Assembly (NCBI GenBank): GCA_965204745.1
Contig: OZ242010.1
Coordinates: forward strand, 3,072,001-3,136,000
Source of the DNA: Candidatus Latescibacterota bacterium
GTDB lineage: Bacteria > Latescibacterota > UBA2968
DNA length: 64,000 bases
Direction of reading: 5' to 3'
In this document: positions 2,831 to 17,821 of the stretch, one piece after another
Position numbering within the stretch: the stretch's first letter is position 1
How the letters are laid out: each line of letters opens with the position of its first letter
Program-made: the position numbers and the translations under genes
Notes under the pieces: generated by a model
The model's input: the letters and a program-made list of their open reading frames with translations, nothing else
Databases searched by the model: none
Told to the model about the DNA's origin: nothing

Positions 2831-3619
2831 ATGCACACGAACCTAACGAGCGTGATCGGCGAGATGCCCTTTCGCATGGCCTTTGCCGGCGGGTGGATCG
2901 ATCAGCCCTTTGTCTCGCGGCACAACCCATCGCCGCCCGGATCTATGGTGGTGGTCTCGCTCGAACCCACTTGTCGGTTTATGAATCGCTGTGGCATGGC
3001 GACCAGCACCCGAGAGATCGCCATGCGGCTTTGGGGAGACGACGTTCCTCAAGGCAAACCATCTGATCTCGTCAAAGAACTGTACACAGCCGAAAATCAG
3101 GGCAAGGTCGAACCGTCCGGGTCGCAGGACATGATCGGGTTGCTCTATCCGGGGGTGAGCAGGCTCGACTACGATTGTGACTATGAGGGCGGCTATTTCC
3201 CGGTGCATATCGAATCCAACAATGACCCCGAGATCGCGCACTGGCTCGAAGAGGTGATCCACCTGGTGCCCATCGCGCCGCGGCCAGATGGGTACGCGCC
3301 ATTGGGCAAAAAAAATCTCAATCCAAAGTGGATTGAAAACTTGGGGCAGTCCGGCAAAAATTGTTACCGCGCGATCCTCGCCCAAGACGCCCAGGGCTTG
3401 GGCGCGTCTTTGAACGAGTGCATGCGGTGTTGGGAAATCCTGTTGCCACACACGATGCGACACCCCACTATCGAAATCGATCTCATGGGCATTTTGGAAT
3501 ACTACCAATCCCGATACATCGGCGCGATGTATTCGGGTTGCGGCGGCGGCTATATCTACGTCGTTTCCGATGAACCCGTGCCCGGCGCACTCCGCGTCAC
3601 TGTCCGCTATGGGACATAA
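2831..3619 (+). CDS. GHMP-superfamily sugar kinase-like protein
   Basis: PFRMAFAGGWIDQP (motif 1), GSQDM, YSGCGGGY; GGAG RBS before ATG 2831. Confidence 0.65.
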   Translation: MHTNLTSVIGEMPFRMAFAGGWIDQPFVSRHNPSPPGSMVVVSLEPTCRFMNRCGMATSTREIAMRLWGDDVPQGKPSDLVKELYTAENQGKVEPSGSQDMIGLLYPGVSRLDYDCDYEGGYFPVHIESNNDPEIAHWLEEVIHLVPIAPRPDGYAPLGKKNLNPKWIENLGQSGKNCYRAILAQDAQGLGASLNECMRCWEILLPHTMRHPTIEIDLMGILEYYQSRYIGAMYSGCGGGYIYVVSDEPVPGALRVTVRYGT

Positions 3620-3658
3620 CCCTCAATAGGACAAGTCCAAGAAATGTAGGGAAAAGCA

Positions 3659-4783
3659 ATGCCTTATGATATATCACAGGACAGACGAGATTGGTACCGA
3701 AAAATCTCTGCGCGATCCAGACAAAGAAAAAAAGCCGCAATCAACGGTGAATTGCAATACGATCTAAACGGGATCAATGAGCCTAGCCTCAAGCCAAAGA
3801 AACTGATGCCACGACAAAAGCCTCACGGCTTGAGAGCACTTTCTCTTTTTTCTGGTGGTGGCGGTCTTGACCTCGGTTTTGAACGCGCTGGGTTTGAACA
3901 TATTGCCAGTTTTGACATCATGGAAATTTGCGGCACGACACTGCGTCAAAACCGTCCGCAATGGCAGGTTCTCTGCGGCTCAAACGGCGATGTAACAAAA
4001 GCTGATTGGTCAGCATATCGAGGGCGCGTTGATCTCGTTCACGGTGGCCCTCCGTGCCAGCCTTTTTCCATTGCTGGAAAACAGAATGGGAATAAGGATG
4101 ATCGGGATATGTGGCCAGCGTTTATTCACGCTTTGCTGACGCTTCTGCCCGAGGTATTTGTCGCTGAAAATGTTCCCGGCCTGCTCGGGCCAAAATTCAG
4201 GCAATACGTCAATGAGGTCATTCTTGCACCGCTGACACCGCATTACCACATCATAACGTTCAAAGTCGTCGCATCTGACTTCGGCGTGCCGCAAATTAGG
4301 AAACGAGTTATTTTTGTAGGTTTTAGATCACCCAAAGTAGCCAATTTCTACAATATTCCGGAACCGACCCATCTGTCTATGGACAACTTGTTCCATTCTG
4401 GCAACCATACGATGGGGGCGAGGGCTGCATTGGGATTAGAAAACATCGGGTTTGATTGCTTCGCGCCTACCCTGCGATCTGGCTTCACCGGCCCTAGAAA
4501 ATCGACGAGTATCCTCAATAGCAAAGCAAGTCAAAAGGTGTGGGAAGAACTCCAGATTTGGCCTAACGGCGTGCAGAAGTCCAGAGAAGAGGCAATTAGA
4601 TTTCCGCCAGAGAACGGCCATTTCAGGCTTTCTGTCCAAGATTGCGCCCTTCTCCAGGGGTTTCCAAACGATTGGGTCTTTCATGGCGCGACTTACCAAA
4701 TACTCGGGCAAATTGGCAATTCCGTCTGTCCACCCGTAGGTTATGCCATTGCAAAATCCGTATCAGAAGCATTGGAGGTCTAA
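3659..4783 (+). CDS. DNA (cytosine-5) methyltransferase, type II R-M
   Basis: LFSGGGG (I), GGPPCQPFS (IV), ENV (VI), QIRKRV (VIII), QIGNSV (X). Confidence 0.95.
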   Translation: MPYDISQDRRDWYRKISARSRQRKKAAINGELQYDLNGINEPSLKPKKLMPRQKPHGLRALSLFSGGGGLDLGFERAGFEHIASFDIMEICGTTLRQNRPQWQVLCGSNGDVTKADWSAYRGRVDLVHGGPPCQPFSIAGKQNGNKDDRDMWPAFIHALLTLLPEVFVAENVPGLLGPKFRQYVNEVILAPLTPHYHIITFKVVASDFGVPQIRKRVIFVGFRSPKVANFYNIPEPTHLSMDNLFHSGNHTMGARAALGLENIGFDCFAPTLRSGFTGPRKSTSILNSKASQKVWEELQIWPNGVQKSREEAIRFPPENGHFRLSVQDCALLQGFPNDWVFHGATYQILGQIGNSVCPPVGYAIAKSVSEALEV

Positions 4784-5506
4784 ATGGCTGTCCAAGATGA
4801 TCGGCGGGAAAGAGAAATGTGTCAGATCATAGGGCTTAGAAAAGGAAAAGGCCGTTCTGATGTCGATGCTTTTTTTGATTTTGAGTTGCGTGGAAAAGTC
4901 TATTCCGCACCGATAGAACTCAAATCGACGACGAGTCATTCGGTTTCAACAGCGAGAGATGTGGGTCCCTCTCATATATCGAAATGGCGCGCTCGAATAT
5001 GGGTGTTCGGATTTTACAACCCATCTGGCAGAAAGCTACAAAAATTGCTCACACTTGGGCCTGATGATATGGAAGCGTGGATCGGAAAAATCGAGCGTTA
5101 TATGGCACCTGATCTTGCGATAGGAGAACGTATTGCAACCAAACTCACCATTGAAGATCTGCATATTATTTGCGGAGAGAAGCGCGAATACAGCCTGAGT
5201 GATGCACGGGCATTGCACAAGCGACAATGGCGGCAGGCCAAGTATGTTGAGGAGATGGATAATGCAACTGGCTACACGCCATTGAAAATGCTCGAGATAC
5301 TCAAATTGCGAGCCATTTATCTCAACCAACGCGGTTCGACTTTGAACAATCCGCATATACCTAGTTCGTTTTTTCAGCGGTTTAGTGACCGAATGATTGA
5401 CGTAATCCAGAGCGATGTTGCCGAAGTTGCAGACGCGGCACAAAAAAATATCCGCGGCATAGCTAATATTTTTGCACGGTCTCTTATTTTTAAGGATAGC
5501 ACATGA
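4784..5506 (+). CDS. Putative type II restriction endonuclease (PD-(D/E)XK)
   Basis: Directly abuts the MTase stop; SDVDA...IELKS fits PD-(D/E)XK; lower GC like the MTase. Confidence 0.6.
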   Translation: MAVQDDRREREMCQIIGLRKGKGRSDVDAFFDFELRGKVYSAPIELKSTTSHSVSTARDVGPSHISKWRARIWVFGFYNPSGRKLQKLLTLGPDDMEAWIGKIERYMAPDLAIGERIATKLTIEDLHIICGEKREYSLSDARALHKRQWRQAKYVEEMDNATGYTPLKMLEILKLRAIYLNQRGSTLNNPHIPSSFFQRFSDRMIDVIQSDVAEVADAAQKNIRGIANIFARSLIFKDST

Positions 5507-6312
5507 AAACCGTCATTATCTCGGGGCGTTTCGACGACATGCGTGCGTGCGATGTGCGTTTTTTGGAAGAAGCCTCCAAATGCGGATGCGTTCACGCGCT
5601 CGTATGGGGCGATGACCTCATCAAAGCGCGCACCGGAAAAGGTCCCAAGTTTCCCGAAGCAGAACGCCTGTATATGGTCGAGGCGAGTCGCTATGTGCAT
5701 CGCGGAATGCGCGTTGCGGAATGGGCAGACGAGGACGGGTTGCCCCGCGAGGTCCATGCCGATATGTGGGTGGTGCATGAACGCGATCACACCCCGCAAA
5801 AACGCCGCTTTTGCGATTCGCACGACATCGCGTACCGCGTTTTGACCGCGAGCGAGACAATGGGATTTCCCGTTGCTGAAACAGGGATGCCCAAGTCCAA
5901 AAACAAAAAGGTCATCGTCACGGGTTGTTTTGATTGGTTTCACTCTGGGCACATCCGATTTTTTGAGGAAGTGTCCGAGTTGGGCGATCTGTACGTGGTT
6001 GTGGGGCACGATGCCAATGTCCGCTTGCTCAAAGGCGAGGGCCATCCCATGTTCAGCGCGCGAGAACGTTGTTATGTGGTGCAGTCCATCCGCTTTGTGC
6101 GACAGGGCCTCATTTCCTCTGGGCACGGTTGGATGGATGCGGCGCCGGAAATTGCGATAGTCAAACCCGATATTTACGCGGTGAATGAAGATGGCGACAA
6201 GCCGGAAAAACGCGCCTTTTGCCGCGACCACGGCTTGGAATACGTCGTCCTAAAACGCGCGCCCAAAGAGGGCCTGCCCCGCAGGGAAAGCACGATACTG
6301 CGGGGATTTTGA
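5503..6312 (+). CDS. Tandem-domain cytidylyl/adenylyltransferase (RfaE-II/TagD-like)
   Basis: C-terminal domain VTGCFDWFHSGH (HxGH) and REST; degenerate N-terminal copy ISGRFDDMRACD. Confidence 0.8.
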   Translation: MKTVIISGRFDDMRACDVRFLEEASKCGCVHALVWGDDLIKARTGKGPKFPEAERLYMVEASRYVHRGMRVAEWADEDGLPREVHADMWVVHERDHTPQKRRFCDSHDIAYRVLTASETMGFPVAETGMPKSKNKKVIVTGCFDWFHSGHIRFFEEVSELGDLYVVVGHDANVRLLKGEGHPMFSARERCYVVQSIRFVRQGLISSGHGWMDAAPEIAIVKPDIYAVNEDGDKPEKRAFCRDHGLEYVVLKRAPKEGLPRRESTILRGF

Positions 6313-6848: not shown

Positions 6849-8390
6849 ATGGCAACCGTTCTTTCCAATGAGATCGAATCGCATTTCAAAGCACTCGGCG
6901 TGGATTCGGTGGTGGCGTACAAATTGTGGTGCTATCGCCATGGGCTGGACACCGGGCTGGACAAGACCCCGGATCAGCGCGGGACGGAACTCGCCCTCGT
7001 GAAAGCCGAGCGACCCGATCCCGACATCGGCCCGCGACACAATGCCCACCGCGCCGAATTTATCGCGCGCATCTTCAAGGGCGAGCTCAAAAACGAAACG
7101 GTTTCGGATTTGCTCTTTCGCATTCGCGCGATGTACAACAACCTCGACGGGGATCCAGATGCACAGCAGGCACTCGGTCGCCTCGTGCTTCACGTTGAGA
7201 AATACGGCGACTTGATGCGGCCCGCACGCGCTTGCAAACGCTTTGGGCACACGGTTGTCAACACGTACATCGCGGCCCTCGAGCAACTCGCGCGCAACCA
7301 CGCCGATTGGATTCGGCCCGTGGAGGACTGGCGGCCTTATCGTTGGACATATCGGCGGCGCAGCAACAAACCCGCGCGCCAATTCAGACACCTCGCGCGG
7401 CACCTCTTGGCAAAATACGACGTGCCCGAGTTTTTTGACACCGCGTTCCTTCAGGGCAATACCCCACAGGCGCGGCAACAACAAGCGTGGTTCAAACACA
7501 TTGGCCTGGGTCAAAACATCCGCACAGCCGACGTGCCCATGCGGATTACAAAACGCATGGCCCATCTGCTCTTGCAACAGCGCGGCGCGCATCACACTAT
7601 CGTTCAAGCTCTTCGCAAGGTTCAGTACGAAACTTATGGCGGCAACCCGTCATCGGCGCGGGAACTCGCGCACGGGCCTTTGGGCGAGACACTCGATAAC
7701 GAAGATTTTTGGGCAACGGTCGTGCAATTCCTCGCCAATCAGCCCTTTCTCGACCACAGCTACCTCAACCCCATCATCGACTATATTCGCAATCAAAAAT
7801 TCACCCCTCAGCGCGTGCCGCAACCGGATGGCACAGAGGTCGAGGCGCCGCCGCTGCATCCCAATTTTTGCATGAAAGGCCGCAGCATCAACAAGCTCAT
7901 CCGGCAAGTTGACCTGTGGCATCAGGAACTCACGGGCATGGAGGATGTCGAGTTTGAGACGTGGCAATCCTCCGGCTTTCGAGAATTTGAACACGTCTCA
8001 TTGGATCCCGAAATAAGACGCAATATCCAGTGGACGGTTCACGAACTCATCACATCGCAACAACTCTACGCCGAAGGGCGCATCATGCACCATTGCGCGG
8101 GGTCTTATACCAAACGCTGCGCCGCGGGCGAAAAATCCCTCTGGTCACTCCGCGCGCTCGACCTCGACGCGGCAGAAGAACATCAGGTGCGGGAACACGT
8201 TCTCACCATCGAGGTCGATAACAAAAAAAAGGCCGTCGTTCAAAACGCCGGCAAATTCAATCTCAAACCCTTTGGCAAAAAACACATGGCCCAACAACGC
8301 AGGACGGGCAACATCTACCTGCACCTCCTCCGCCAAGCCCCCACCGTCATGCGCCTGTGGATGGACAGAGAAGGCTTGTCGCATGGGTGA
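6849..8390 (+). CDS. PcfJ-like domain protein
   Basis: C-terminal ELITSQQLYAEGRIMHHCAGSY...LWSLR...LTIEV signature. Confidence 0.75.
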   Translation: MATVLSNEIESHFKALGVDSVVAYKLWCYRHGLDTGLDKTPDQRGTELALVKAERPDPDIGPRHNAHRAEFIARIFKGELKNETVSDLLFRIRAMYNNLDGDPDAQQALGRLVLHVEKYGDLMRPARACKRFGHTVVNTYIAALEQLARNHADWIRPVEDWRPYRWTYRRRSNKPARQFRHLARHLLAKYDVPEFFDTAFLQGNTPQARQQQAWFKHIGLGQNIRTADVPMRITKRMAHLLLQQRGAHHTIVQALRKVQYETYGGNPSSARELAHGPLGETLDNEDFWATVVQFLANQPFLDHSYLNPIIDYIRNQKFTPQRVPQPDGTEVEAPPLHPNFCMKGRSINKLIRQVDLWHQELTGMEDVEFETWQSSGFREFEHVSLDPEIRRNIQWTVHELITSQQLYAEGRIMHHCAGSYTKRCAAGEKSLWSLRALDLDAAEEHQVREHVLTIEVDNKKKAVVQNAGKFNLKPFGKKHMAQQRRTGNIYLHLLRQAPTVMRLWMDREGLSHG

Positions 8391-8534
8391 TACGCTTCCC
8401 CCGCTCCACCACTAACCCTGCCGGGTGCGTTCCCAACCCATCGCCGCTCCGCCATGGGCGTGCCCAACCCACCGCTAACCCCGCCGGGTGCGACCTATTA
8501 GAGCGGTTTCATATCTTCTCGCAGAGATGACCGT

Positions 8535-9041
8535 TTAGCCCAAATAAGCATGCGGTTCCTTGTCTGGTTCTCTGGCTTTTAGCTTTTCGTCCTTGGTCCA
8601 AATATGCACTCGCCATGCCGATTCCCGATAGGTGGTGGTGCGTTTTTTGAGTCTGTCGGCTTCGTCAATCAAGGTGCTGTCGCTTAAACCAATGCCTTCG
8701 ATAACATGGTTATCGACAAAACGCACTATCAGTTTTTTGAGGGCACTGAGTTCTTGGGAGGGGATAATCGTCCACGGTACTGCTTTGTCGAGGCTAGACA
8801 GGATGTCATTTCGCAATTTCTTGGCCAATGACCGCCGTGCATTGCCATTAGAGACACCAGCGATGTGGTTGGCTAGTTCGTAGATGGACGGCACAGTAAC
8901 GTACAGCCGTGCGCCCTGTTTGACTGCGTCTTTGAAGCGGCTTCTTATCTCATCAACTGCTTCTTGGGTGGAGTGACCCGGAACAGCGTACAGTTCCAGC
9001 AAGTAGCTCGTATCGATCACGTAAACCGGCTGTGCTTTCAT
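8535..9041 (-). CDS. PIN-domain protein
   Basis: VIDTSYLLE, YELANH, GLSDSTLI, IWTKD acidic PIN residues; ATGA overlap with the upstream ATPase. Confidence 0.7.
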   Translation of the reverse strand: MKAQPVYVIDTSYLLELYAVPGHSTQEAVDEIRSRFKDAVKQGARLYVTVPSIYELANHIAGVSNGNARRSLAKKLRNDILSSLDKAVPWTIIPSQELSALKKLIVRFVDNHVIEGIGLSDSTLIDEADRLKKRTTTYRESAWRVHIWTKDEKLKAREPDKEPHAYLG

Positions 9042-10318
9042 GGCATGGCCTCAATCCACGCCAGCATCTTTTTTTGTCTCTGTTCCTCGAACTCTGGCGC
9101 GACATATTGTTCAAGGACGCGGCGCGACACGAGATCTCCCAACTGCCCGCGCTCGAGAAGTTCATCGGACCTCGGCACCTGCATCAACTCCACCAAATCA
9201 GCGGCTTCCTTTTCCTTGCTCCAAGTGCAGAGAACGACCCCCTCTATCTGTTCGGCAGTCAAATTGTTCATGGTCGCAGGATTATGCGTTGTGACGAGCA
9301 CGCGCAGGTTGCGGCGTTTGATGGCTTTCTCGATTGCGGAGGTCAAAACGCCGACTCGACTTGGATGCAGGCCATTGTCAAACTCTTCCACAATCACACG
9401 CGAACCTTCTTGGGCCGTCTCCAAAGCCGTCAAAATAGCGAGGGTTCGCAAAGTGCCATCCGACAATGATCGGGCATCCACAGTATAACCCGTTCTTTCG
9501 CGCAACCCGAAAATCACATCGTCGAGATCGGTGACTGTAAAGATGAATTTTTCGTACGGTTCGTCCGGAAGTTGACGGATTTGAGACAGTAGCCTAGCCA
9601 ACGATTTTCGCTCGGCTTCATCGCCAACGGAAAGCGCGTAAAGCACTGCCGACAGATTCGCCCCATCCCGCGAGAGAACGCTGTTGCCGATGCGCTCGTA
9701 GCTGTGCATCAATTTCGGATTGGGATCAAAGACAAACGAAGCCTGCAAGTGGTTCATGACGATCTGCACCAACCGCATGCACTCTTTGAAGTTCTGATTC
9801 TTCTGCGCGATTTCTCGATACTGCGACAGAACGGAACGCTCTGACGAAGCCGCTATTTGGGGTTTCCTGCCGCCGCGGGCAAAGTTGTCGTATTTCACCA
9901 CCAAGTCACGCGATGCTTCCCAAGGGTTCTTGGGCAATGTTTCGTAGATTATGCGGTCACCGAATTCCAACCGCTCACGAAGTATTTGAGGATGCGGTTC
10001 GGTGCAAATGTGTAGGACGTAGTTAACGGGCTTGAACGCTCTGTGGAGCCTTATGCGAGCCGTAAAATTTAACGCGAAGGGTTCCTCGCCCATTCGCCCA
10101 CAACCTTGAAGTCCACCGCGAATTTGGATGCCCGTCGCGGCGCGCCCCACGTCGGCAATCTCGTAGAGGGGTTGTCCGCGTGCGACAAAGGAGAGCAACT
10201 CGATTGCTTCAATGACGTTGGTCTTTCCCGATCCATTTGGCCCGATTAGAAGCGTGAACGGTCGCAACAGATCAATGCTGGCCGCGTTGAATCCTTTGAA
10301 GTCAATGAGGTTGTGCAT
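9038..10318 (-). CDS. AAA_21/AAA_15-type (ABC/SMC-like) ATPase
   Basis: Walker A GPNGSGKT, LSDGT signature, VIVEEFDNGLHP Walker B/D-loop, TTHN. Confidence 0.9.
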   Translation of the reverse strand: MHNLIDFKGFNAASIDLLRPFTLLIGPNGSGKTNVIEAIELLSFVARGQPLYEIADVGRAATGIQIRGGLQGCGRMGEEPFALNFTARIRLHRAFKPVNYVLHICTEPHPQILRERLEFGDRIIYETLPKNPWEASRDLVVKYDNFARGGRKPQIAASSERSVLSQYREIAQKNQNFKECMRLVQIVMNHLQASFVFDPNPKLMHSYERIGNSVLSRDGANLSAVLYALSVGDEAERKSLARLLSQIRQLPDEPYEKFIFTVTDLDDVIFGLRERTGYTVDARSLSDGTLRTLAILTALETAQEGSRVIVEEFDNGLHPSRVGVLTSAIEKAIKRRNLRVLVTTHNPATMNNLTAEQIEGVVLCTWSKEKEAADLVELMQVPRSDELLERGQLGDLVSRRVLEQYVAPEFEEQRQKKMLAWIEAMP

Positions 10319-10542
10319 GGGATAGCCTTATTTTTTTAATGGCTGATGGCTGAAAATTGGCTTTCAATATATACAAATGCACAGCGCGGAACAACTGCCT
10401 TGACGCAACAAAAAAGGCCGTAAGCGGGCAAACCCTCACGACCTTTCTTTTTCGGACTTCCAATTTTACCTGAAGAACACGGACATGCCCACGGTTACAA
10501 AATGGCGCGTGCTTTTTGACCTTTGATCGAAAATGCGAGCAT

Positions 10543-11475
10543 TTACTCCTGACTAAATAAATTCCGAGGCCCCATGCCCATAAGGGCCTCGATTCTGTTT
10601 TTCAATCGTTTAGCGAGTTCAGTTGGTTCGGTCCAGTCAATGCAGTTGTATTGGCGAATGTCGAAATGAAGGTTCTCGATGTCGTCCTTACGACAGGTCC
10701 AAATAACCTGTATGTTGAGCCCGAACGCAAATCCCGCCTCAAAATACACGCCTCCACGATGTCCGGTAAAATCGGCGACCAAGAATTTTGAACGCCGAAT
10801 CTCGGCAATGATCCGATCGTCGATCTTTCCAGCATGCTCTACCTCATCAATCCGCACAGGATCGTATCCCGCCTTTAGAATCCCCGCTTCAAATCCCTTT
10901 TCGTAGGCGTCTTGCATTGAATCGTCAAACCACATGGCGACAAACGCCTGAGTAGAAGCCGCTTCGCGTGCGTGCAATTCTTCGTACCTCTTATGGCCCT
11001 GAGACGTGATTCTATAGCTATGGCCTATAAGGTTTGCATCTAAGCAACCCTGATCGACAAGTAACCTGGCCAAGTAGTCTAAATCACCCAGATTTTTTGA
11101 ATAGGAAATCGCTTGAAGATCTAGACTGAGGGGGTTGATGATAACTTCATTGAGCGATTTATGATGGCGCACAGAGTAGATCAAAATGCGGTCTGCCCGT
11201 TCCAAAGGGCTTGGAATCGGCATTGTAGCAATGCGTTTGATCTGATCGCCATCTATTTCTGGAATCTCATTGAGCATGTTCCGCTCGCGAATCCAGGCGG
11301 CCAGCTTGACTTCGATTTCTGGCAAAGGTTCAGAATCGACCGGTTCAAGCCAAAATCGCCCGCAATGTGGACAGTCCTGGCGAATGCGGACGAGGCGCCC
11401 GTAGTCTTCAACTGGTTTACCTATTGTCTTCGCTTGCTCATTGCCACAGATTACACAAGGATGGTTTTCAGCCAT
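10543..11475 (-). CDS. Zn-ribbon plus TIR/nucleoside 2-deoxyribosyltransferase-like protein
   Basis: N-terminal CVIC...CPHC; C-terminal AFVAMWF...IRRSKFLVADFT..RGGVYFEAGFA...LHFDI; AAGGAG RBS. Confidence 0.7.
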   Translation of the reverse strand: MAENHPCVICGNEQAKTIGKPVEDYGRLVRIRQDCPHCGRFWLEPVDSEPLPEIEVKLAAWIRERNMLNEIPEIDGDQIKRIATMPIPSPLERADRILIYSVRHHKSLNEVIINPLSLDLQAISYSKNLGDLDYLARLLVDQGCLDANLIGHSYRITSQGHKRYEELHAREAASTQAFVAMWFDDSMQDAYEKGFEAGILKAGYDPVRIDEVEHAGKIDDRIIAEIRRSKFLVADFTGHRGGVYFEAGFAFGLNIQVIWTCRKDDIENLHFDIRQYNCIDWTEPTELAKRLKNRIEALMGMGPRNLFSQE

Positions 11476-11485
11476 CGTATTCTCC

Positions 11486-13798
11486 TTATTTGATTGGTTC
11501 AAGGCGGTTCACATCCGGCTCCAGTGCCGCATGCAACAGGGCGTCGAGCAGGCGTTGCTTGGTATCGTTTCCGGCAACGAGACTCGCCTCCAGCCGATCA
11601 CACAATGCCATCAGTTCATCCACTTTGGCGACGATGCGGTGTTGTTCGGCGAGGGGCGGGCAGGGGATCGAGATATTTGAAATTGATTCTCGATTTAGGG
11701 TTGCGCCCTTTATTGCTCCCTTCGTGTCACCTTGTCGCGCAAAAAAGGGCAATATCTTAAAGAGATAAGGATCGAGCTCCGAAACATACGGACGTATAGA
11801 GATGATTGCTTCGTTGTGGTAAGCGGGAATGCCAAGCCGCGCTATTTTTCCGATAGTCAACTTGAAACTCATAATCATCGTGCCGACTTGTTTGGGGGCG
11901 GAACGAAAAATTTGTTTGGCTGCTTTCTCGCTGACCGTCTCTTTTGTCGTCATGAGTGTCTCGCCATCGCCCATGTCTGAGATACTGATCCATGGGTAAT
12001 CGCCTGTGTTCCAAAAAGACAACTCATTTCGAGTTGGAGTACGACCCGCCGAGAAGTCCGCGATGTTTCCAAACTTTACCCAACGCCACTTCGCAGGAAT
12101 GCCAAAAGGACGCTCATCAATCTCGATAGCGGGAAGTACTTTGCCCTTCCGAATCTCTCCTCTCTTCACCAACCGCGCTTTTTCTTTTTTAATCCGCTTC
12201 AACAGTTCCGCCGCCGGTTCGTCATTTGGGTCTTGTAGCACGAGTTTGCCGCGCACTGCGAGGTCGAGGATGAAGTGGCGCAGGCGTGGGATGGCGTCAG
12301 GCGCGTCTGCGACTTGTGTAAAGTGGGCGAGCAGTTGATCGGTGTTCATCGCAGCAGTGCCCAAAACTGTCTTTAACTGATCGCGCAAGGTCGCGGTTTC
12401 CGATTCGGTCGCGGTCAGATAGGTCAGAAGTTCCTCGGGATCGCCGGGGGCGTCTTCGGCTGTGTGTGGGTTCTTGATGTCGAGGTTGTAGCCACGCGCC
12501 TTGACTTCTTCCGCGGTGACTTGCCAAGCGCGTTCTGTTTTCCTGCGGCCCGTGCGTTCTGGCCCGCCCCACCAATCCATGCAGTCTCGTAGGTGTTCTA
12601 TTCGGATCGGCTTGGTCTTGGAATAGGATTTCTGGCCTTTGGGCACCAGATGTTCGTAAAACCATATCCGCTCGGTTGGCGCGCCCTTTTCAAAGAACAG
12701 CAAGTTGGTGCCGATAGAGGCATAGGGCTGGAACACGGAATTGGGCAAGCGGACAATGGTGTGGAGATTGCATTCCGCCATCAGGTGTTCCTTGAGCCGG
12801 GTTTTGACGCCTTCGCCAAACAGCGAGCCATCGGGCAGAACCACTGCGGCGCGACCGCCCGGCTTCAAGACGCGGATGATGAGGGCGAGGAACAAGTCCG
12901 CGGTTTCCTTTGTGCGGAAATGCTGTGGAAAATTGCTCTCGATCCCATCTTCTTCCTTGCCCCCAAAGGGCGGATTGGTGAGCACGATATCTACCCGATC
13001 CCGCTTTTCCCAACTGATATAGGGCCGCGCCAAGGTGTTGTCGTGGGTGACAAAGCTCGGGTTTTTAATTTTGTGCAACAGCATGTTGGTAACGCAAAGC
13101 ATGTGCGGCAGTTGTTTCTTGTCCACGGCGCGGAGCGAGGTCTGTATCCTTTCCACGTCTTCGGGCCGTTTGACGTACCGGGCGCGCATGTGGCGCAATG
13201 AACACGTCAGAAAGCCGCCCGTGCCGCAGGCCGGGTCAAACAGGATTTCCCCCGGCTTGGGATCGATGCGGTCGACCATGAAGGCGGTGACGGCGCGTGG
13301 GGTGTAGTATTCACCGGCATTGCCCGCGGATTGCAGGTCGTTCAAGATCTGTTCGTAGATGTCGCCAAAATGCTGGATTTCGGCCAGGTCGTTGAAGTCG
13401 ATCTCGTTGATCTTGTTCACCACTTGGCGCATCAACTGCCCGGACTTCATGTAGTTGTAGGCGTCCTCAAACACACTTCGCACCACGCGGCGGCGGTCGT
13501 CGGATGGGCCGGTCGCGTGGAGATTTTTCAGTGCCGGGAACAAATCGTCGTCGATAAAGGCGATCAGTTTTTCGCCGGTGATGCCCTCGGCATCGCCCGC
13601 CCATGTGCGCCACTGAAACCGCTTTGGGATTGGGGATGTGTAGTTTTCCTCGGTCAGTTCTAATTCTTTGTCCTGATCGTCGATGATTTTGAGAAAGAAC
13701 ATCCAGCACAGTTGACCGATGCGCTGCGCGTCGCCATCGACGCCGGTATCTCGGCGCATGATGTCTTGGATGGATTTGACCAACGTGTTGACGGACAT
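11486..13798 (-). CDS. hsdM: Type I R-M HsdM fused in frame to a half (single-TRD) HsdS, EcoAI/type IB-like
   Basis: GEYYTPR, DPACGTGGF, NPPF. After ~483 aa it continues into HsdS (LRHFILDLAVRGKLVLQDPNDEPA, one TRD, PPLAEQHRIVAKVDELMALCDRLE). Confidence 0.9.
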   Translation of the reverse strand: MSVNTLVKSIQDIMRRDTGVDGDAQRIGQLCWMFFLKIIDDQDKELELTEENYTSPIPKRFQWRTWAGDAEGITGEKLIAFIDDDLFPALKNLHATGPSDDRRRVVRSVFEDAYNYMKSGQLMRQVVNKINEIDFNDLAEIQHFGDIYEQILNDLQSAGNAGEYYTPRAVTAFMVDRIDPKPGEILFDPACGTGGFLTCSLRHMRARYVKRPEDVERIQTSLRAVDKKQLPHMLCVTNMLLHKIKNPSFVTHDNTLARPYISWEKRDRVDIVLTNPPFGGKEEDGIESNFPQHFRTKETADLFLALIIRVLKPGGRAAVVLPDGSLFGEGVKTRLKEHLMAECNLHTIVRLPNSVFQPYASIGTNLLFFEKGAPTERIWFYEHLVPKGQKSYSKTKPIRIEHLRDCMDWWGGPERTGRRKTERAWQVTAEEVKARGYNLDIKNPHTAEDAPGDPEELLTYLTATESETATLRDQLKTVLGTAAMNTDQLLAHFTQVADAPDAIPRLRHFILDLAVRGKLVLQDPNDEPAAELLKRIKKEKARLVKRGEIRKGKVLPAIEIDERPFGIPAKWRWVKFGNIADFSAGRTPTRNELSFWNTGDYPWISISDMGDGETLMTTKETVSEKAAKQIFRSAPKQVGTMIMSFKLTIGKIARLGIPAYHNEAIISIRPYVSELDPYLFKILPFFARQGDTKGAIKGATLNRESISNISIPCPPLAEQHRIVAKVDELMALCDRLEASLVAGNDTKQRLLDALLHAALEPDVNRLEPIK

Positions 13799-13799
13799 G

Positions 13800-16178
13800 T
13801 TAAGCGACCTCCAGGTAAAGTGCGGATTGCAAATCGCGGGCGGCTTCAAGAAATTCGTCCCTGCCGCCAAAGGCATTGATCAACTGCACGGGGGTGCCGA
13901 GTTCGGTGAACGGCGGAATTTGTAGCACCTTGGTATCGAAATCGATCACGCCCTCGTCGGCGTACTTGTCCAAGAGGGCGTTGAGCACGGCACGGGCCTG
14001 CTTCCCGTACTTGGTGAACGCATCTCGCTTTCGGACATTCGCGGCGCGCTCGCGGCGGGTCAGGGGCGTGGCGTCAAAGGCGAGATGGCAAATGAGGTCA
14101 AAGGGATCGAGATCCTCGCCCTCGGCGAGCATGTCGAGTGCCAGTCCTCTATCTCTCAATTCTTCAACAATCGCTCGCTTGCGCTCTGCCGCGTTCCATC
14201 GCCCGAGAAAGTCGTCGAGGCTGGCGAAGTGCTTTTTGAGTTCCTTTTTGGTAAAGTCGCGCAAGGACTCGGCGGTCAATCTGCCATACTTGTCGAGGTA
14301 TTCCACGCGCTCGGCAATGATTTCTACCCCGACCCCATCCACGTACACTTTTTGCGCGCCGCTGAGATGTGGTCGTTGATCGGGGAATATGGGATCCGTG
14401 CCGTCCTCTGGATACGGCTCATCGTCGGGCGGAATCATGGGATCGCCATCGCCCGGCTCGTAAATCTGCACGGGTTCGCCATCGAAATCCGGTTCCGCGA
14501 AATGGCTCGTCGCGCCCCGGAAATCCATCAAAGTAAAGTAAAATTTGTGCGTGTCCTCGTGTACGCGCGTGCCCCGCCCGACGATCTGTTTGAACTCGGT
14601 CATGGAACCGACGATGCGGTCGAGCACAATCAAGCGGCAGGTTTGGACATCGACGCCGGTGGAAAGCAGGCGCGAGGTCGTGACCAATACGGGATATGTG
14701 GATTCCGGGTCCATAAAGTTGTCGAGTTGGGCCTGACCTTCGGGGTCGTTGCCGGTGATACGCATGACATAGTGGTGGTTCTGATCTACCAAATCGGCGT
14801 TCTCATTGACGAGGGCTTGTCTCATGCGGCCGGCGTGTTCTTGGTCGACGCAAAAGATGATCGTTTTCTGGAACCGGTCGCCGCTTTCCTTCAGAAATTG
14901 CGTCACCTTGCGGGCGACCAACTCGGTGCGTTCGTCCAACACCAGGGTGTGGTCAAAGTCCCTGGCGTTGTAGATGCGGTCTTCGATCTCATTGCCGTAT
15001 CGGTCGCGTTGGTCTCTTTCCGGGCGATAGCCTTCCACATCCCGGTCAATATGAACTTTGATGACTTTGTAGGGCGCGAGAAAGCCATCTTGGATGCCTT
15101 GTTTCAAGGAGTAGGAATAGATCGGATCCCCAAAGTAATGGATGTTGGAGTCGTACTTGGTTTCCTTGGGTGTGGCGGTTAGGCCGATCTGCGTGGCGGC
15201 AGAGAAATACTCCAGAATTTCCCGCCAAGCCGAATCCTCGGCAACACTGCCCCGATGGCACTCGTCAACCACGATCAAATCAAAAAAGGTGGGCGATAAC
15301 TCGCGGAAAACTTTCTGGCGCTCCTCCGGGCCGGTGATCGCTTGATAGAGGCCGAGATAGATCTCATAAGCCGTATCGACGCGGCTATTTTTTGTGCTGC
15401 CCTCCCCGCGTTCAATGGTGCCTGAACGGGTCGAGAGTTTGGTCATTGCCGGGCCGAAGGGTCGGAAATCGTTGCTTTGGGTCTGATCGATCAGCACATT
15501 GCGGTCAGCCAAAAACAAGACGCGCTTTTTGATGCCCGCCTTCCACAGCCGATAGATGATTTGAAAGGCGGTGTAGGTTTTGCCGGTGCCCGTTGCCATC
15601 ACGAGCAGAATGCGGTCATGTCCGCGGGCAATGGCTTCGGTGACAGCGTTGATGGCCTTGACTTGGTAATAGCGCGGCTCTTTGCCCCTGGGATCGTGGA
15701 AGTAGTCTTGGAGGACGATTTTCTCGGCTTCGGGCGTCCAGCCCTTCCAAGTTCGATAGCGCGTCCAGAGCGCATCGGGCGATGGGAACGCGTCGAGACT
15801 GAGGATCGTTTCTCGTTTTGAGCCGAGGCCGGTTCGGTCATGAAACACAAAGCCATCGCCATTGGAGGAAAACACAAAGGGAATGTCCAGGGCAGCGGCG
15901 TAGTTGAGGGCTTGTTGCATGCCGTCACCGATGGCGAGGGTGTTCTTCTTGGCTTCGATGAGCGCGATGTGGAGGTTGGGTTTGTTTTTGTAATGCAGGA
16001 TGTAGTCGGCCCGTTTGCTCTCGCCTCGACAGACCAACTTGCCGCGCACGTTGATCTGCCCCTTGGCGAATGGGTACTCCTCGCGGATTTGCGACATGAG
16101 GTCCCACCCGGCACGGCACAAGGCCGGCGTGATGACCTTGGTGCAAATGTCGCGCTCGCTCAACCGCTTTTTGTCCAT
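13800..16178 (-). CDS. hsdR: Type I restriction endonuclease subunit R, EcoAI/EcoEI-like
   Basis: LSERDICTK, IEAKK, MATGTGKT, DECHRG, TATP, QIVGRGTR and EcoEI-type C-terminus. Confidence 0.93.
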   Translation of the reverse strand: MDKKRLSERDICTKVITPALCRAGWDLMSQIREEYPFAKGQINVRGKLVCRGESKRADYILHYKNKPNLHIALIEAKKNTLAIGDGMQQALNYAAALDIPFVFSSNGDGFVFHDRTGLGSKRETILSLDAFPSPDALWTRYRTWKGWTPEAEKIVLQDYFHDPRGKEPRYYQVKAINAVTEAIARGHDRILLVMATGTGKTYTAFQIIYRLWKAGIKKRVLFLADRNVLIDQTQSNDFRPFGPAMTKLSTRSGTIERGEGSTKNSRVDTAYEIYLGLYQAITGPEERQKVFRELSPTFFDLIVVDECHRGSVAEDSAWREILEYFSAATQIGLTATPKETKYDSNIHYFGDPIYSYSLKQGIQDGFLAPYKVIKVHIDRDVEGYRPERDQRDRYGNEIEDRIYNARDFDHTLVLDERTELVARKVTQFLKESGDRFQKTIIFCVDQEHAGRMRQALVNENADLVDQNHHYVMRITGNDPEGQAQLDNFMDPESTYPVLVTTSRLLSTGVDVQTCRLIVLDRIVGSMTEFKQIVGRGTRVHEDTHKFYFTLMDFRGATSHFAEPDFDGEPVQIYEPGDGDPMIPPDDEPYPEDGTDPIFPDQRPHLSGAQKVYVDGVGVEIIAERVEYLDKYGRLTAESLRDFTKKELKKHFASLDDFLGRWNAAERKRAIVEELRDRGLALDMLAEGEDLDPFDLICHLAFDATPLTRRERAANVRKRDAFTKYGKQARAVLNALLDKYADEGVIDFDTKVLQIPPFTELGTPVQLINAFGGRDEFLEAARDLQSALYLEVA

Positions 16179-16189
16179 AGCGCGTCCTT

Positions 16190-17158
16190 TCATACATACC
16201 GAATATTCTTCCCCAGCGTTGCCACCATTTCGCCGGTCGCCACCATGGGGCGGGCGTTTTCCGACCAGAAGATCGATTCCTCTGGGGCGCGCAGGGTTTC
16301 GAGCACATTGCCGAATGGATCCGTGATGTCTGCGATGGGGTCGCCTTTTTGCAAGTGGTCGTAGCGTTGTGCGTGAAATTCTATGAAGCCGCCCCGATTG
16401 GACAGCAGGGTTAAAAATCCATCCACCACCACTTGTCTTTTGGGAATGTGCGGTTCGCCCGGGATGACGCCGTAGTACTTCAGCGCGTTCTCCACGCCCC
16501 GAATGCCCTTTTGAATGCTCGCCCTGTCCCAGCCTGGGCAACCGCCGAGTTCCGGATCGATGGTCGGGATGCCTTCATCCGGGGCCGCGCGCGCCAGTTG
16601 CCCTTCGGGGCCGCGCTGGTCGAGGATGTACCCGATGCCAAATACCTGTGCCATTTCCATGCAGGCGCGATGAATGCGTTTGCGCCGGTCCACGCGCACG
16701 CGCACTTCGTCGATCATGGGGCGTTGCCCGCCTTGGTGCAAGTCGATGCAGTAATCGGCCTGCCGCACGGCATTGTGGAACAACCGATGGGCGATGCGCT
16801 CGCTCGAGGTGCCGTCTGTGCGCCCGGGGAAACACCGATTCATCTTTTTTTTGTCGATGGGGCTGAATGCCCGATGCGCGTGAAAGGCGTGGAAATTGGC
16901 GATCAGCACCGCGATGATCTGCCCGCTCATCGCGGTTGGATCCAGCCGCTTCAACACCTGCCGAATCACGGCCACGCCATTTAACTCGTCCCCGTCGCTG
17001 ATGGCCTGCAAGTAAAAGGTCGGGCCTTCCCGAACCCCATTGATCAGGGAGACCGGCACGCGCGCAGGCGATCCGTCCTGCATCTCGGCCACTTTCAAAT
17101 AGCCATCCACGCGCTGCCCCGGCTCGGCCCTGAGATGTTCAACGCGAAGCATGTTCAT
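16190..17158 (-). CDS. Succinylglutamate desuccinylase/aspartoacylase family protein
   Basis: DGDELNG, MNRCFPG, IDLHQG, ELGG; CAGGAG RBS. Confidence 0.85.
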   Translation of the reverse strand: MNMLRVEHLRAEPGQRVDGYLKVAEMQDGSPARVPVSLINGVREGPTFYLQAISDGDELNGVAVIRQVLKRLDPTAMSGQIIAVLIANFHAFHAHRAFSPIDKKKMNRCFPGRTDGTSSERIAHRLFHNAVRQADYCIDLHQGGQRPMIDEVRVRVDRRKRIHRACMEMAQVFGIGYILDQRGPEGQLARAAPDEGIPTIDPELGGCPGWDRASIQKGIRGVENALKYYGVIPGEPHIPKRQVVVDGFLTLLSNRGGFIEFHAQRYDHLQKGDPIADITDPFGNVLETLRAPEESIFWSENARPMVATGEMVATLGKNIRYV

Positions 17159-17276
17159 CGCTCCTGAAAAAAGCCACTTGCCATTTGATTTCCCCAAAAA
17201 AATAGGGGAATGCCTGTGGTGTCAACGCAAACTCGGTGGCAGTCATGTCAGGCGGTACATTATCCGCTTGAAAAAA

Positions 17277-17308
17277 AAAGAGCCGACCCATTTCTGGATC
17301 GGCTTTTG
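17277..17308. terminator. Probable bidirectional intrinsic terminator
   Basis: A-run-gagccgacccatttctggatcggc-tttt hairpin. Confidence 0.45.
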
Positions 17309-17386
17309 TCATGGTGCCAACGAGAGGCTTTGTGTGCGGTTTGGTATTATACCAATTTGATTTTATACTAAATTGATTTTCTATTA

Positions 17387-17821
17387 GGTTGTGTTGACAT
17401 TTCATTTTTTTTTGCGTTACGCACAGATTAGCAAATGTGTTGCTTGCTCATTTAATGCGCTTCCTTTGATGGCGTTGCGAGAGGGGACCTATCCCCCGGC
17501 CCCGTTATTCGCTTCGCTCATTGTAGGCTACGCCTGTGCCTACGAGGAAAGGGGAGTAAAGCTCCTTTGATGGCTTAGAGCTCTAGTTGCTCTGATGGCG
17601 TTGACCGAAGGCATAAAGCGATTAAAAATCCCTCATCAATCCCCTCGCAAAACCGCTCACAGTTCCCCCCCTTCCTCAAAGGAAGGGGGGCCAGGGGGGT
17701 AGGTCCCGATAAGGAGCGACTATTTCAGTTTCTCAAACCGAGAGCATATTCTGCGATAGGGCTTGATTTTCTCGATAAACCGCTCAAGCCAGTTGCTTTG
17801 CTCCTAAATGTCAACAGAACC
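17387..17821 (-). mobile_element. Composite MITE, IS5-family-derived (copy 2, inverted)
   Basis: Same TIRs and internal sequence as 2264-2684; flanks TTA and TAA. Confidence 0.8.

Follow-up and report, generated by a model that had tools for sequence, protein, structure and literature searches.

A recently formed HsdM~half-HsdS fusion beside an EcoAI-family hsdR in a Latescibacterota genome: a probable two-gene Type I restriction-modification system

Single chains joining HsdM (M) to HsdS (S), the methyltransferase (MTase) and specificity subunits of Type I restriction-modification (R-M) enzymes, have precedents both engineered and natural. Roberts et al. (2012, PMC3510504) describe the removal of the frameshift between EcoKI hsdM and hsdS to make an M-S fusion; in their account, 'Type IMS' systems comprise M-S fusions with one or two target recognition domains (TRDs) plus a separate HsdR, and are placed along the route between families IA/IC and family IB. 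In the experiments reported by Bower et al. (2018, PMC6158711), an HsdM~half-HsdS fusion of the Staphylococcus aureus CC398-1 enzyme ('M1/2Sfus') dimerised, methylated and, together with HsdR, restricted. A natural HsdM1-HsdS1/2 fusion of Vibrio vulnificus, two chains of which are reported to recapitulate the classical M2S1 core, is mentioned in PMC12429846 with reference to Seo et al. 2022, and PDB entry 7EEW bears the title 'intact MTase from Vibrio vulnificus YJ016'. Half-size S subunits also occur without fusion. The treatment of these systems by Loenen et al. (2014, PMC3874165) includes NgoAV, the one natural palindromic Type I system it lists, the EcoR124I and EcoDXXI truncations and M.AhdI (2M+2S), and notes that half-S homodimers were unreported outside family IC. 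The same review presents M.XmnI, M.DrdI as well as M.XcmI as homodimeric gamma-MTases (2 gammaM~[TRD]) thought to pair on interrupted palindromes. Here, we analyzed an M~half-S gene in a 64,000-nt stretch of the genome of a Candidatus Latescibacterota bacterium (contig OZ242010.1, positions 3,072,001 to 3,136,000; hereafter the window, in which all plain coordinates below are counted). Together with the adjoining hsdR, this gene appears to form a working two-gene Type I R-M system of the EcoAI (IB) family that would act as a homodimer on a symmetric site, a reading drawn from sequence and from analogy with the systems above to which we assign a probability of about 0.75.

The fused open reading frame (ORF) occupies positions 11486 to 13798 of the minus strand and runs from an ATG at 13798 to a TAA at 11488-11486 without internal stop, encoding 770 aa. 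The public gene call for the contig (P0274) is an identical 770-aa protein. The initial annotation had described an HsdM of about 483 aa that continues in frame into MNTDQLL at an ATG at 12349, then an EcoAI-type half HsdS of about 287 aa with a single TRD, and both lengths and the position proved exact. The M part (residues 1-483, 12350-13798, minus strand) consists of an N-terminal domain followed by a gamma-class N6-methyladenine MTase domain, matched by Pfam HsdM_N at residues 6-130 (5e-11) and N6_Mtase at residues 142-448 (1.9e-70). Its MTase motifs are intact (DPACGTGG at 188, NPPF at 275), and it thus has the S-adenosylmethionine-binding motif I and the catalytic NPPF of gamma-class HsdM proteins. 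Codon 484, at which MNTDQLL begins, is the in-frame ATG at 12349-12347 and corresponds to the former hsdS start codon, which has been retained. The 287-aa S part that it opens comprises, all on the minus strand, an N-terminal conserved helical region (residues 484-560, 12119-12349) that aligns with the N-termini of 26 canonical IB-type HsdS proteins, one TRD (approximately residues 561-712, 11663-12118) inside the sole Pfam Methylase_S stretch (residues 568-738, 5.9e-15), and a C-terminal conserved helix (residues 713-770, 11489-11662) presumed to mediate dimerisation. In the AlphaFold2 model of the 770-aa protein, this last block forms one long helix (residues 716-759), with a predicted local distance difference test score (pLDDT) mostly between 84 and 94, and the alignment of fused relatives (A1) showed a conserved PPLAEQ.RIV motif in this region.

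Directly upstream, on the same strand, lies hsdR (13800-16169), which encodes a 789-aa Type I restriction subunit. A single nucleotide separates its TAA stop codon (13802-13800) from the ATG of the fused gene, and a Shine-Dalgarno-like GGAGG precedes that ATG at 13808-13812 (minus strand). HsdR scored 1114.7 bits over residues 3-785 against the EcoAI/FtnUII equivalog model NF046051 of NCBIfam, which has a cut-off of 550 bits. It contains the Pfam domains HSDR_N, ResIII, Helicase_C and EcoEI_R_C, and has kept its motor motifs (GTGKT at 194, DECH at 302, TATP at 331, GRGTR at 531). The nuclease region, the superfamily 2 motor, the EcoEI_R_C tail and the above-cut-off score that characterize HsdR of the EcoAI/FtnUII (IB) family are thus all present. 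No separate two-TRD HsdS, the classical component of an M2S1 enzyme that canonical relatives possess, is found at the locus. The proposed two-gene Type I layout, in which an intact hsdR of this family adjoins the fused gene without a separate hsdS, was therefore confirmed, and, as far as sequence allows a check, every part of the initial interpretation is supported. The next gene begins 10 nt beyond the stop codon of the fused gene, with an ATG at 11475. Scans of positions 8300-17400 returned 4 promoter-like sites against 5.5 expected by chance and 16 terminator-like sites against 12.4 expected, which is within chance, and for this reason we claim no operon boundaries.

Two other classifications were considered and rejected. 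A single-chain enzyme of Type ISP or Type IIG does not fit a 770-aa protein that contains neither a nuclease nor a helicase domain and whose R component is encoded by a separate gene. Membership in the methylation-associated defence system (MADS) was rejected on a score of 106.8 bits against NF047738, for which the MAD2 cut-off is 720, and on the PADLOC models, where MTase_I scored 714.7 bits and mad2 203 bits.

The junction at which M runs into S (12350-12364, minus strand), encoding L-G-T-A-A before M484, is the site at which DNA alignments place a 5-nt deletion relative to canonical relatives. A false deletion of these 5 nt by sequencing or assembly would turn a normal hsdM/hsdS pair into an apparent fusion. 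The genome is a single 5.48-Mb contig and, by our guess, possibly a long-read assembly, and coverage of the junction was judged on assembled Logan contigs rather than raw reads, both of which leave some room for such an artefact. At this contig level, the check for a stop or frameshift between M and S called for by the initial annotation revealed none in a contig of run X1 and one of run X3, both of which are continuous across 12340-12360. The X1 contig (12276-12667, depth 71.9), from the best holder of this sequence and perhaps the source sample itself, spans the junction without gap, and so does a contig from another study (X3, 12279-12419, depth 5.8). Since the X3 contig is independent, the fused allele exists outside this assembly. 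Furthermore, P0001, P0276 and the fragment P0277, all from other ENA contigs, share the identical junction, as does a different species of the genus (G016), where later substitutions surround it. The loss of 5 nt outside any homopolymer is also an untypical long-read error and weighs against an artefact. Taken together, these observations make an artefact scarcely credible.

The genus itself preserves the likely steps that led to the fusion. Three other species of the genus (G001, G016 and G018) have an orthologous locus, whose flanks share 81-92% DNA identity with those of the source genome (G000). In G001 it has the canonical form, consisting of hsdR, a 485-aa hsdM and a two-TRD hsdS of 567 aa that overlaps hsdM by ATGA; this conforms to the typical canonical locus, where an hsdM of about 485 aa ends in ..AEALLR and the ATG of an hsdS of 520-600 aa overlaps with the hsdM TGA. 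G018 carries a fused 769-aa gene at the orthologous position, and a separate hsdR stands alongside the fused gene in both G016 and G018. The M part of the window's fusion and the free-standing HsdM of G001 (485 aa) share 88% identity. Between the half S of the fusion and the second half of G001 HsdS, identity is 78% (85% over 262 residues by blastp). This half S corresponds to the N-terminus of the G001 protein joined, at the first of two repeats, to the second half of the gene, and residues 484-560 of the fusion combine the HsdS N-terminus of G001 with the central repeat in a mosaic. Direct repeats occur in the G001 hsdS, with lengths of 130 nt (94% identity at a distance of 849 nt) and 79 nt (100% identity at a distance of 858 nt), and, judging from these sequences, an in-frame deletion between the 130-nt copies would yield exactly the half S of the window.

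The fused frame was created at the junction. DNA alignments showed that the window and G016 lack 5 nt that are present in G001 and in 7 other canonical loci, a loss that, immediately ahead of the TGA, brings hsdM in frame with hsdS. Comparison at the orthologous locus thus shows a mutational origin in two steps. A two-TRD hsdS first lost one TRD between its direct repeats, and the 3' end of hsdM then lost 5 nt, which cancelled the frame offset at the ATGA overlap. Phase variation was rejected as the cause of the indel because the deleted nucleotides lie outside any simple repeat. In G018 and P0275, by contrast, the junction has gained 4 nt (..ALLRRM..), and P0002 and P0278 show a third form that reads ..ALLRM... 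Since a 5-nt deletion and a 4-nt insertion led to the same frame relation, at least two independent indels must have occurred. The TRD of the window is also carried by P0275 and P0278 (150 of 152 residues identical), and the TRDs of G016 and G018 are unrelated to it (20-30% identical). Unrelated TRDs in related fused genes indicate that TRDs have been exchanged. Elsewhere in the same genus, a more distant R-M unit (53-58% identical; L091 in G020 and L092 in G019) has a separate half-size hsdS of 280 and 278 aa, respectively, that overlaps hsdM by ATGA, i.e. an unfused half-S state.

The initial annotation had also called for a homolog search to see whether the fusion is conserved, and such a search showed that the layout recurs widely. 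A protein search covered 5.8 billion proteins, of which we considered the best 120 matches. Thirty-four of these are at least 600 aa long, and 33 of the 34 measure 637-830 aa, which leaves space for one TRD; the lone exception is P0004, a 1010-aa protein consisting of M and a two-TRD S. When the best 150 representatives of clusters at 50% identity were taken, 19 aligned to the query in a single stretch over approximately residues 1-730 or more. Among the 52 representatives of at least 640 aa, 33 combine N6_Mtase with one Methylase_S stretch, none has two, and 48 contain NPP[FY]. For comparison, we sampled 80 metagenome loci seeded with the S N-terminus only. The 61 S genes that are complete on their contig include 43 of full size, 8 of half size, 4 intermediate, 3 longer and 3 short, while the other 19 run off their contigs. 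Given that 33 of 34 long matches leave space for one TRD and 33 of 52 long representatives have one Methylase_S stretch, whereas unfused S genes are mostly full-size, fusion is strongly tied to half S. The HsdM~half-HsdS layout is already described and common in databases. One further candidate (L175) was rejected as a fusion, as the 560-aa open frame upstream of its S gene holds no MTase domain. Plasmids yielded no fused example in the 2 of 142 records that we examined, both of which carry canonical R-M-S loci; in one of them (H15), a stop codon is all that divides M from S, which share one frame. Three close HsdM relatives are fused to other modules, namely GmrSD_N (P0142, 1059 aa), an AAA_21/AAA_15 ATPase (P0254, 899 aa) and an N-terminal ResIII helicase, which makes P0242 (995 aa) an R-M fusion.

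By analogy with the precedents cited at the outset, two copies of the fused enzyme probably act together at a symmetric DNA site. The conserved helices on either side of the TRD would hold two chains together, and the pair would be the equivalent of a classical M2S1 core in which the two TRDs are identical but inverted relative to each other and each has one M attached. Because inverted identical TRDs predict an interrupted palindrome as target, the core should read a bipartite site composed of a half-site, a spacer of about 6-8 bp and the inverted half-site, and would methylate one adenine per strand. With two HsdR subunits, bound as in classical enzymes, the complex would translocate and cut unmodified DNA. 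This mechanism is modeled on the engineered HsdM~half-HsdS (PMC6158711) and on the natural V. vulnificus M1S1/2 chain (PDB 7EEW), and dimerisation, a palindromic target and restriction activity are all inferred by analogy. A dimer prediction with two copies of the S part (residues 484-770, alignment A1) gave a score of 0.00 against a mark of 0.42; the run had no controls and is counted neither way.

The fused chain might instead depend on additional subunits, either free half-S or HsdM released by internal initiation at the ATG at 12349 or by proteolysis, or subunits borrowed from the other EcoAI-type system that this genome encodes. According to PMC3510504, the engineered EcoKI M-S fusion, which carries two TRDs, had to be supplemented with free HsdM in vitro. 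The window has kept the former hsdS ATG, and a second R-M-S locus, with an M that is 50% identical, lies at C1:447937-453239. We nevertheless judge such a dependence very unlikely. One TRD per chain already provides the correct 1:1 ratio of M to TRD, and the engineered half-S fusion is reported to be active with HsdR alone (PMC6158711). Moreover, no Shine-Dalgarno-like sequence precedes the internal ATG, the methionine at position 484 is replaced by I, L or V in many fused relatives, and exchange of subunits that are only 50% identical is doubtful. We therefore retain the self-sufficient homodimer as the preferred reading.

Selection has acted on the fused gene. Between the fused lineages G000, G016 and G018, the ratio of nonsynonymous to synonymous substitution rates (dN/dS) of the M part is 0.08-0.12 at a synonymous divergence (dS) of 0.23-0.30. 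The helices flanking the TRD have values of 0.2-0.5, and the half S compared with G001 gave 0.20. These values show that the fused gene is under purifying selection.

Several observations weigh against a working, maintained system, and among them the rarity of fused loci, the allelic polymorphism and the broken gene of G016 also speak against any strong claim of selection. A second X3 contig (depth 6.64) has 5 extra bases at 12361-12362, the unfused form, contigs of X2 and X10 show only the form with the 5 extra bases (12361-12365), and P0005 is a separate 485-aa HsdM that is 99% identical and represents an unfused allele. The fused allele is therefore polymorphic among close strains, and since both alleles coexist the fusion may be neutral. 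In G016, the fused gene (L089, G016:C1:2338001-2358000, positions 9513-11813, minus strand) has a TAG nonsense codon in place of the invariant W32, which is either a real inactivation or an assembly base error; its hsdR remains 87% identical to that of the window over the full length. A fused gene broken at W32 implies that the lineage can decay. Furthermore, a genome scan seeded with fused proteins (A1, M-part patterns) confirmed at least 588 loci, of which the best 80 were examined, and none of these was fused. All 80 are canonical, with a first ORF complete at 471-515 aa in 75 of them, off the contig end in 3, broken at 92 aa in one and 594 aa long in one (L052, the longest). The 80 metagenome loci likewise included no fused form. 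The genome scan shows just that the fusion is uncommon. A survey of 168 genomes of the phylum identified 25 with a close M homolog, only 3 of which have the fused form, all in one genus. The AlphaFold2 model is weak overall, including its MTase domain (mean pLDDT 65.8). Finally, the contrast between half-size and full-size S in fused and unfused genes gave a Fisher p of 1e-14 that is indicative only and overstates the case, because two differently drawn samples were joined and relatives are not independent.

Several of these points, above all the mixture of fused and unfused alleles among close strains, the nonsense codon at W32 in G016 and the lack of fused forms in both samples of 80 loci, would also be expected if the fusion were a recent neutral or mildly harmful frameshift allele at a locus drifting to loss, with a poorly active or inactive product. 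An intact hsdR would be no argument for activity in that case, because an inactive M~S would silence HsdR harmlessly. Such drift is hard to reconcile with at least two independent indels that established the same frame relation, with the persistence of one junction between species at a dS of ~0.24 and a dN/dS of 0.12, and with catalytic motifs that are all intact. In addition, random frameshifts in the common two-TRD loci would mostly give proteins of ~1050 aa, yet 33 of the 34 long matches fit one TRD, the layout is kept in 33 separate 50%-identity clusters, and engineered equivalents are active. We therefore consider drift toward loss unlikely and favor a functional two-gene system.

Other specificity genes are numerous in the source genome, which has 23 Methylase_S matches in all. 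The second EcoAI-type locus (L001, G000:C1:440001-456000, positions 7925-13239, minus strand) is canonical and encodes an hsdR ORF of 845 aa, an hsdM of 477 aa (50% identical to the M part of the window) and a 444-aa hsdS that has two TRDs and an ATGA overlap. Three more M~S fusions of other lineages were found in this genome, so the layout is not rare. One of them (L182, positions 3437-6079, minus strand) is an 880-aa protein with N6_Mtase and two Methylase_S stretches, i.e. M fused to a full S. An 861-aa HsdR-like gene (ResIII, HSDR_N; L182, positions 7027-9612, minus strand) lies ~950 nt upstream, and the pair occupies G000:C1:1175437-1181612. With this fusion, the engineered two-TRD 'Type IMS' seems to have a counterpart in nature. 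Many genomes of the order contain open frames of 831-887 aa that show the same partial match as the L182 protein. The second (L180, positions 3140-5485, minus strand) is a 781-aa fusion of N6_Mtase with one TRD that is flanked by UPF0182 and a sigma-70 gene, and no HsdR was found near it among the ORFs scanned. The third (L181, positions 3406-6234, minus strand) is a 942-aa protein with HsdM_N, N6_Mtase and one TRD, located beside an AbiC-like gene.

The gene that begins 10 nt downstream of the fusion (10543-11475, minus strand) encodes a 310-aa protein with an N-terminal Cys-rich, zinc-ribbon-like region. Its C-terminal part matches the PADLOC TIR 'Effector' model (7e-12), and its score against Pfam Nuc_deoxyrib_tr (19.9 bits) is under the cut-off of 28.8. 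No counterpart of this gene is present at the orthologous loci of G001, G016 and G018. Further downstream, a gene pair (8535-10318, minus strand) matches the PADLOC candidate defence system PDC-M07 and consists of a 426-aa AAA_21 ATPase (PDC-M07A, 3e-100) overlapping a 168-aa protein (PDC-M07B, 3.4e-53). The R-M unit flanks the pair on one side and a conserved PcfJ-like gene (6849-8390, plus strand) on the other, and the content of this slot varies among species of the genus.

The genus displays each small step from a classical three-gene to a two-gene Type I system. As such, it provides field evidence for the published model in which removal of the hsdM/hsdS frameshift starts new restriction-enzyme layouts, and a natural counterpart of the laboratory constructs. 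It also leads to a prediction, namely that the palindromic half-site recognized here should coincide with the one that the G001 enzyme reads through its second TRD. Whether the convergent fusions of the genus (5-nt deletion, 4-nt insertion and ALLRM), all on half-S backgrounds, are adaptive rather than tolerated is a more speculative matter, and we offer an adaptive origin as a tentative idea about which we are rather doubtful. If it were true, joining a collapsed one-TRD S to HsdM would fix the 1:1 ratio of M to TRD and shield the half S from mis-pairing with the many other specificity subunits of the genome. The locus would then represent a natural, datable series of the steps of interconversion between Type I and Type II-like systems proposed by Roberts et al. 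(2012) and Bower et al. (2018). Public records label such genes merely 'N-6 DNA methylase' or 'M protein'; annotation pipelines may therefore overlook both their specificity function and the completeness of the systems to which they belong.

Among known systems, the engineered 'M1/2Sfus' and 'Type IMS' enzymes share with the window system the order of their domains and a separate HsdR, and the frameshift removal that produced 'Type IMS' has the same effect as the 5-nt deletion of the window. They differ in that they were built in the laboratory from EcoKI (family IA) and S. aureus CC398-1, whereas the fusion described here is natural and belongs to the EcoAI (IB) kind. The literature searched yielded no paper on EcoAI-type M~S fusions that occur in nature, a search that did not extend to REBASE. 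In unfused half-S systems, according to the review cited above (PMC3874165), a homodimer of single-TRD S recognizes an interrupted palindrome with M and S as separate chains, which are fused in the window; unfused half-size S genes also adjoin relatives of the window's M, in G019 and G020 and in 8 of the 61 complete metagenome S genes. [quoted passage not shown]

The closest natural parallel is V. vulnificus YJ016 M1S1/2, which, as reported, is also a single chain of HsdM followed by a one-TRD half HsdS in a Type I operon. In a fold search with the AlphaFold2 model, itself of low confidence, 7eew_A was the sole chain in ranks 1-24 to align across both parts (783 columns, E 5e-13, 17% identity), with a poor superposition (template modeling scores 0.35/0.43). 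At the sequence level, 7EEW matches only the M part of the window protein (E 7.6e-33, covering residues 3-440 of the 638 in the chain), and PDB sequence searches with the S part and with profile A1 did not reach its C-terminal part. Because only the M part matches by sequence, 7EEW represents a separate lineage, and common descent of the two fusions was rejected on this ground and because the fusion of the window is recent and restricted to one genus. The window protein also differs in its size (770 aa) and in the long IB-type conserved region between M and TRD. Unlike 7EEW, its fusion has a recent origin that can be traced to a canonical EcoAI-type pair and is local to one genus, and, unlike the engineered enzymes, fusions of its type arose at least twice in that genus. 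The added value of this locus is this traceable and repeated origin within a single genus.

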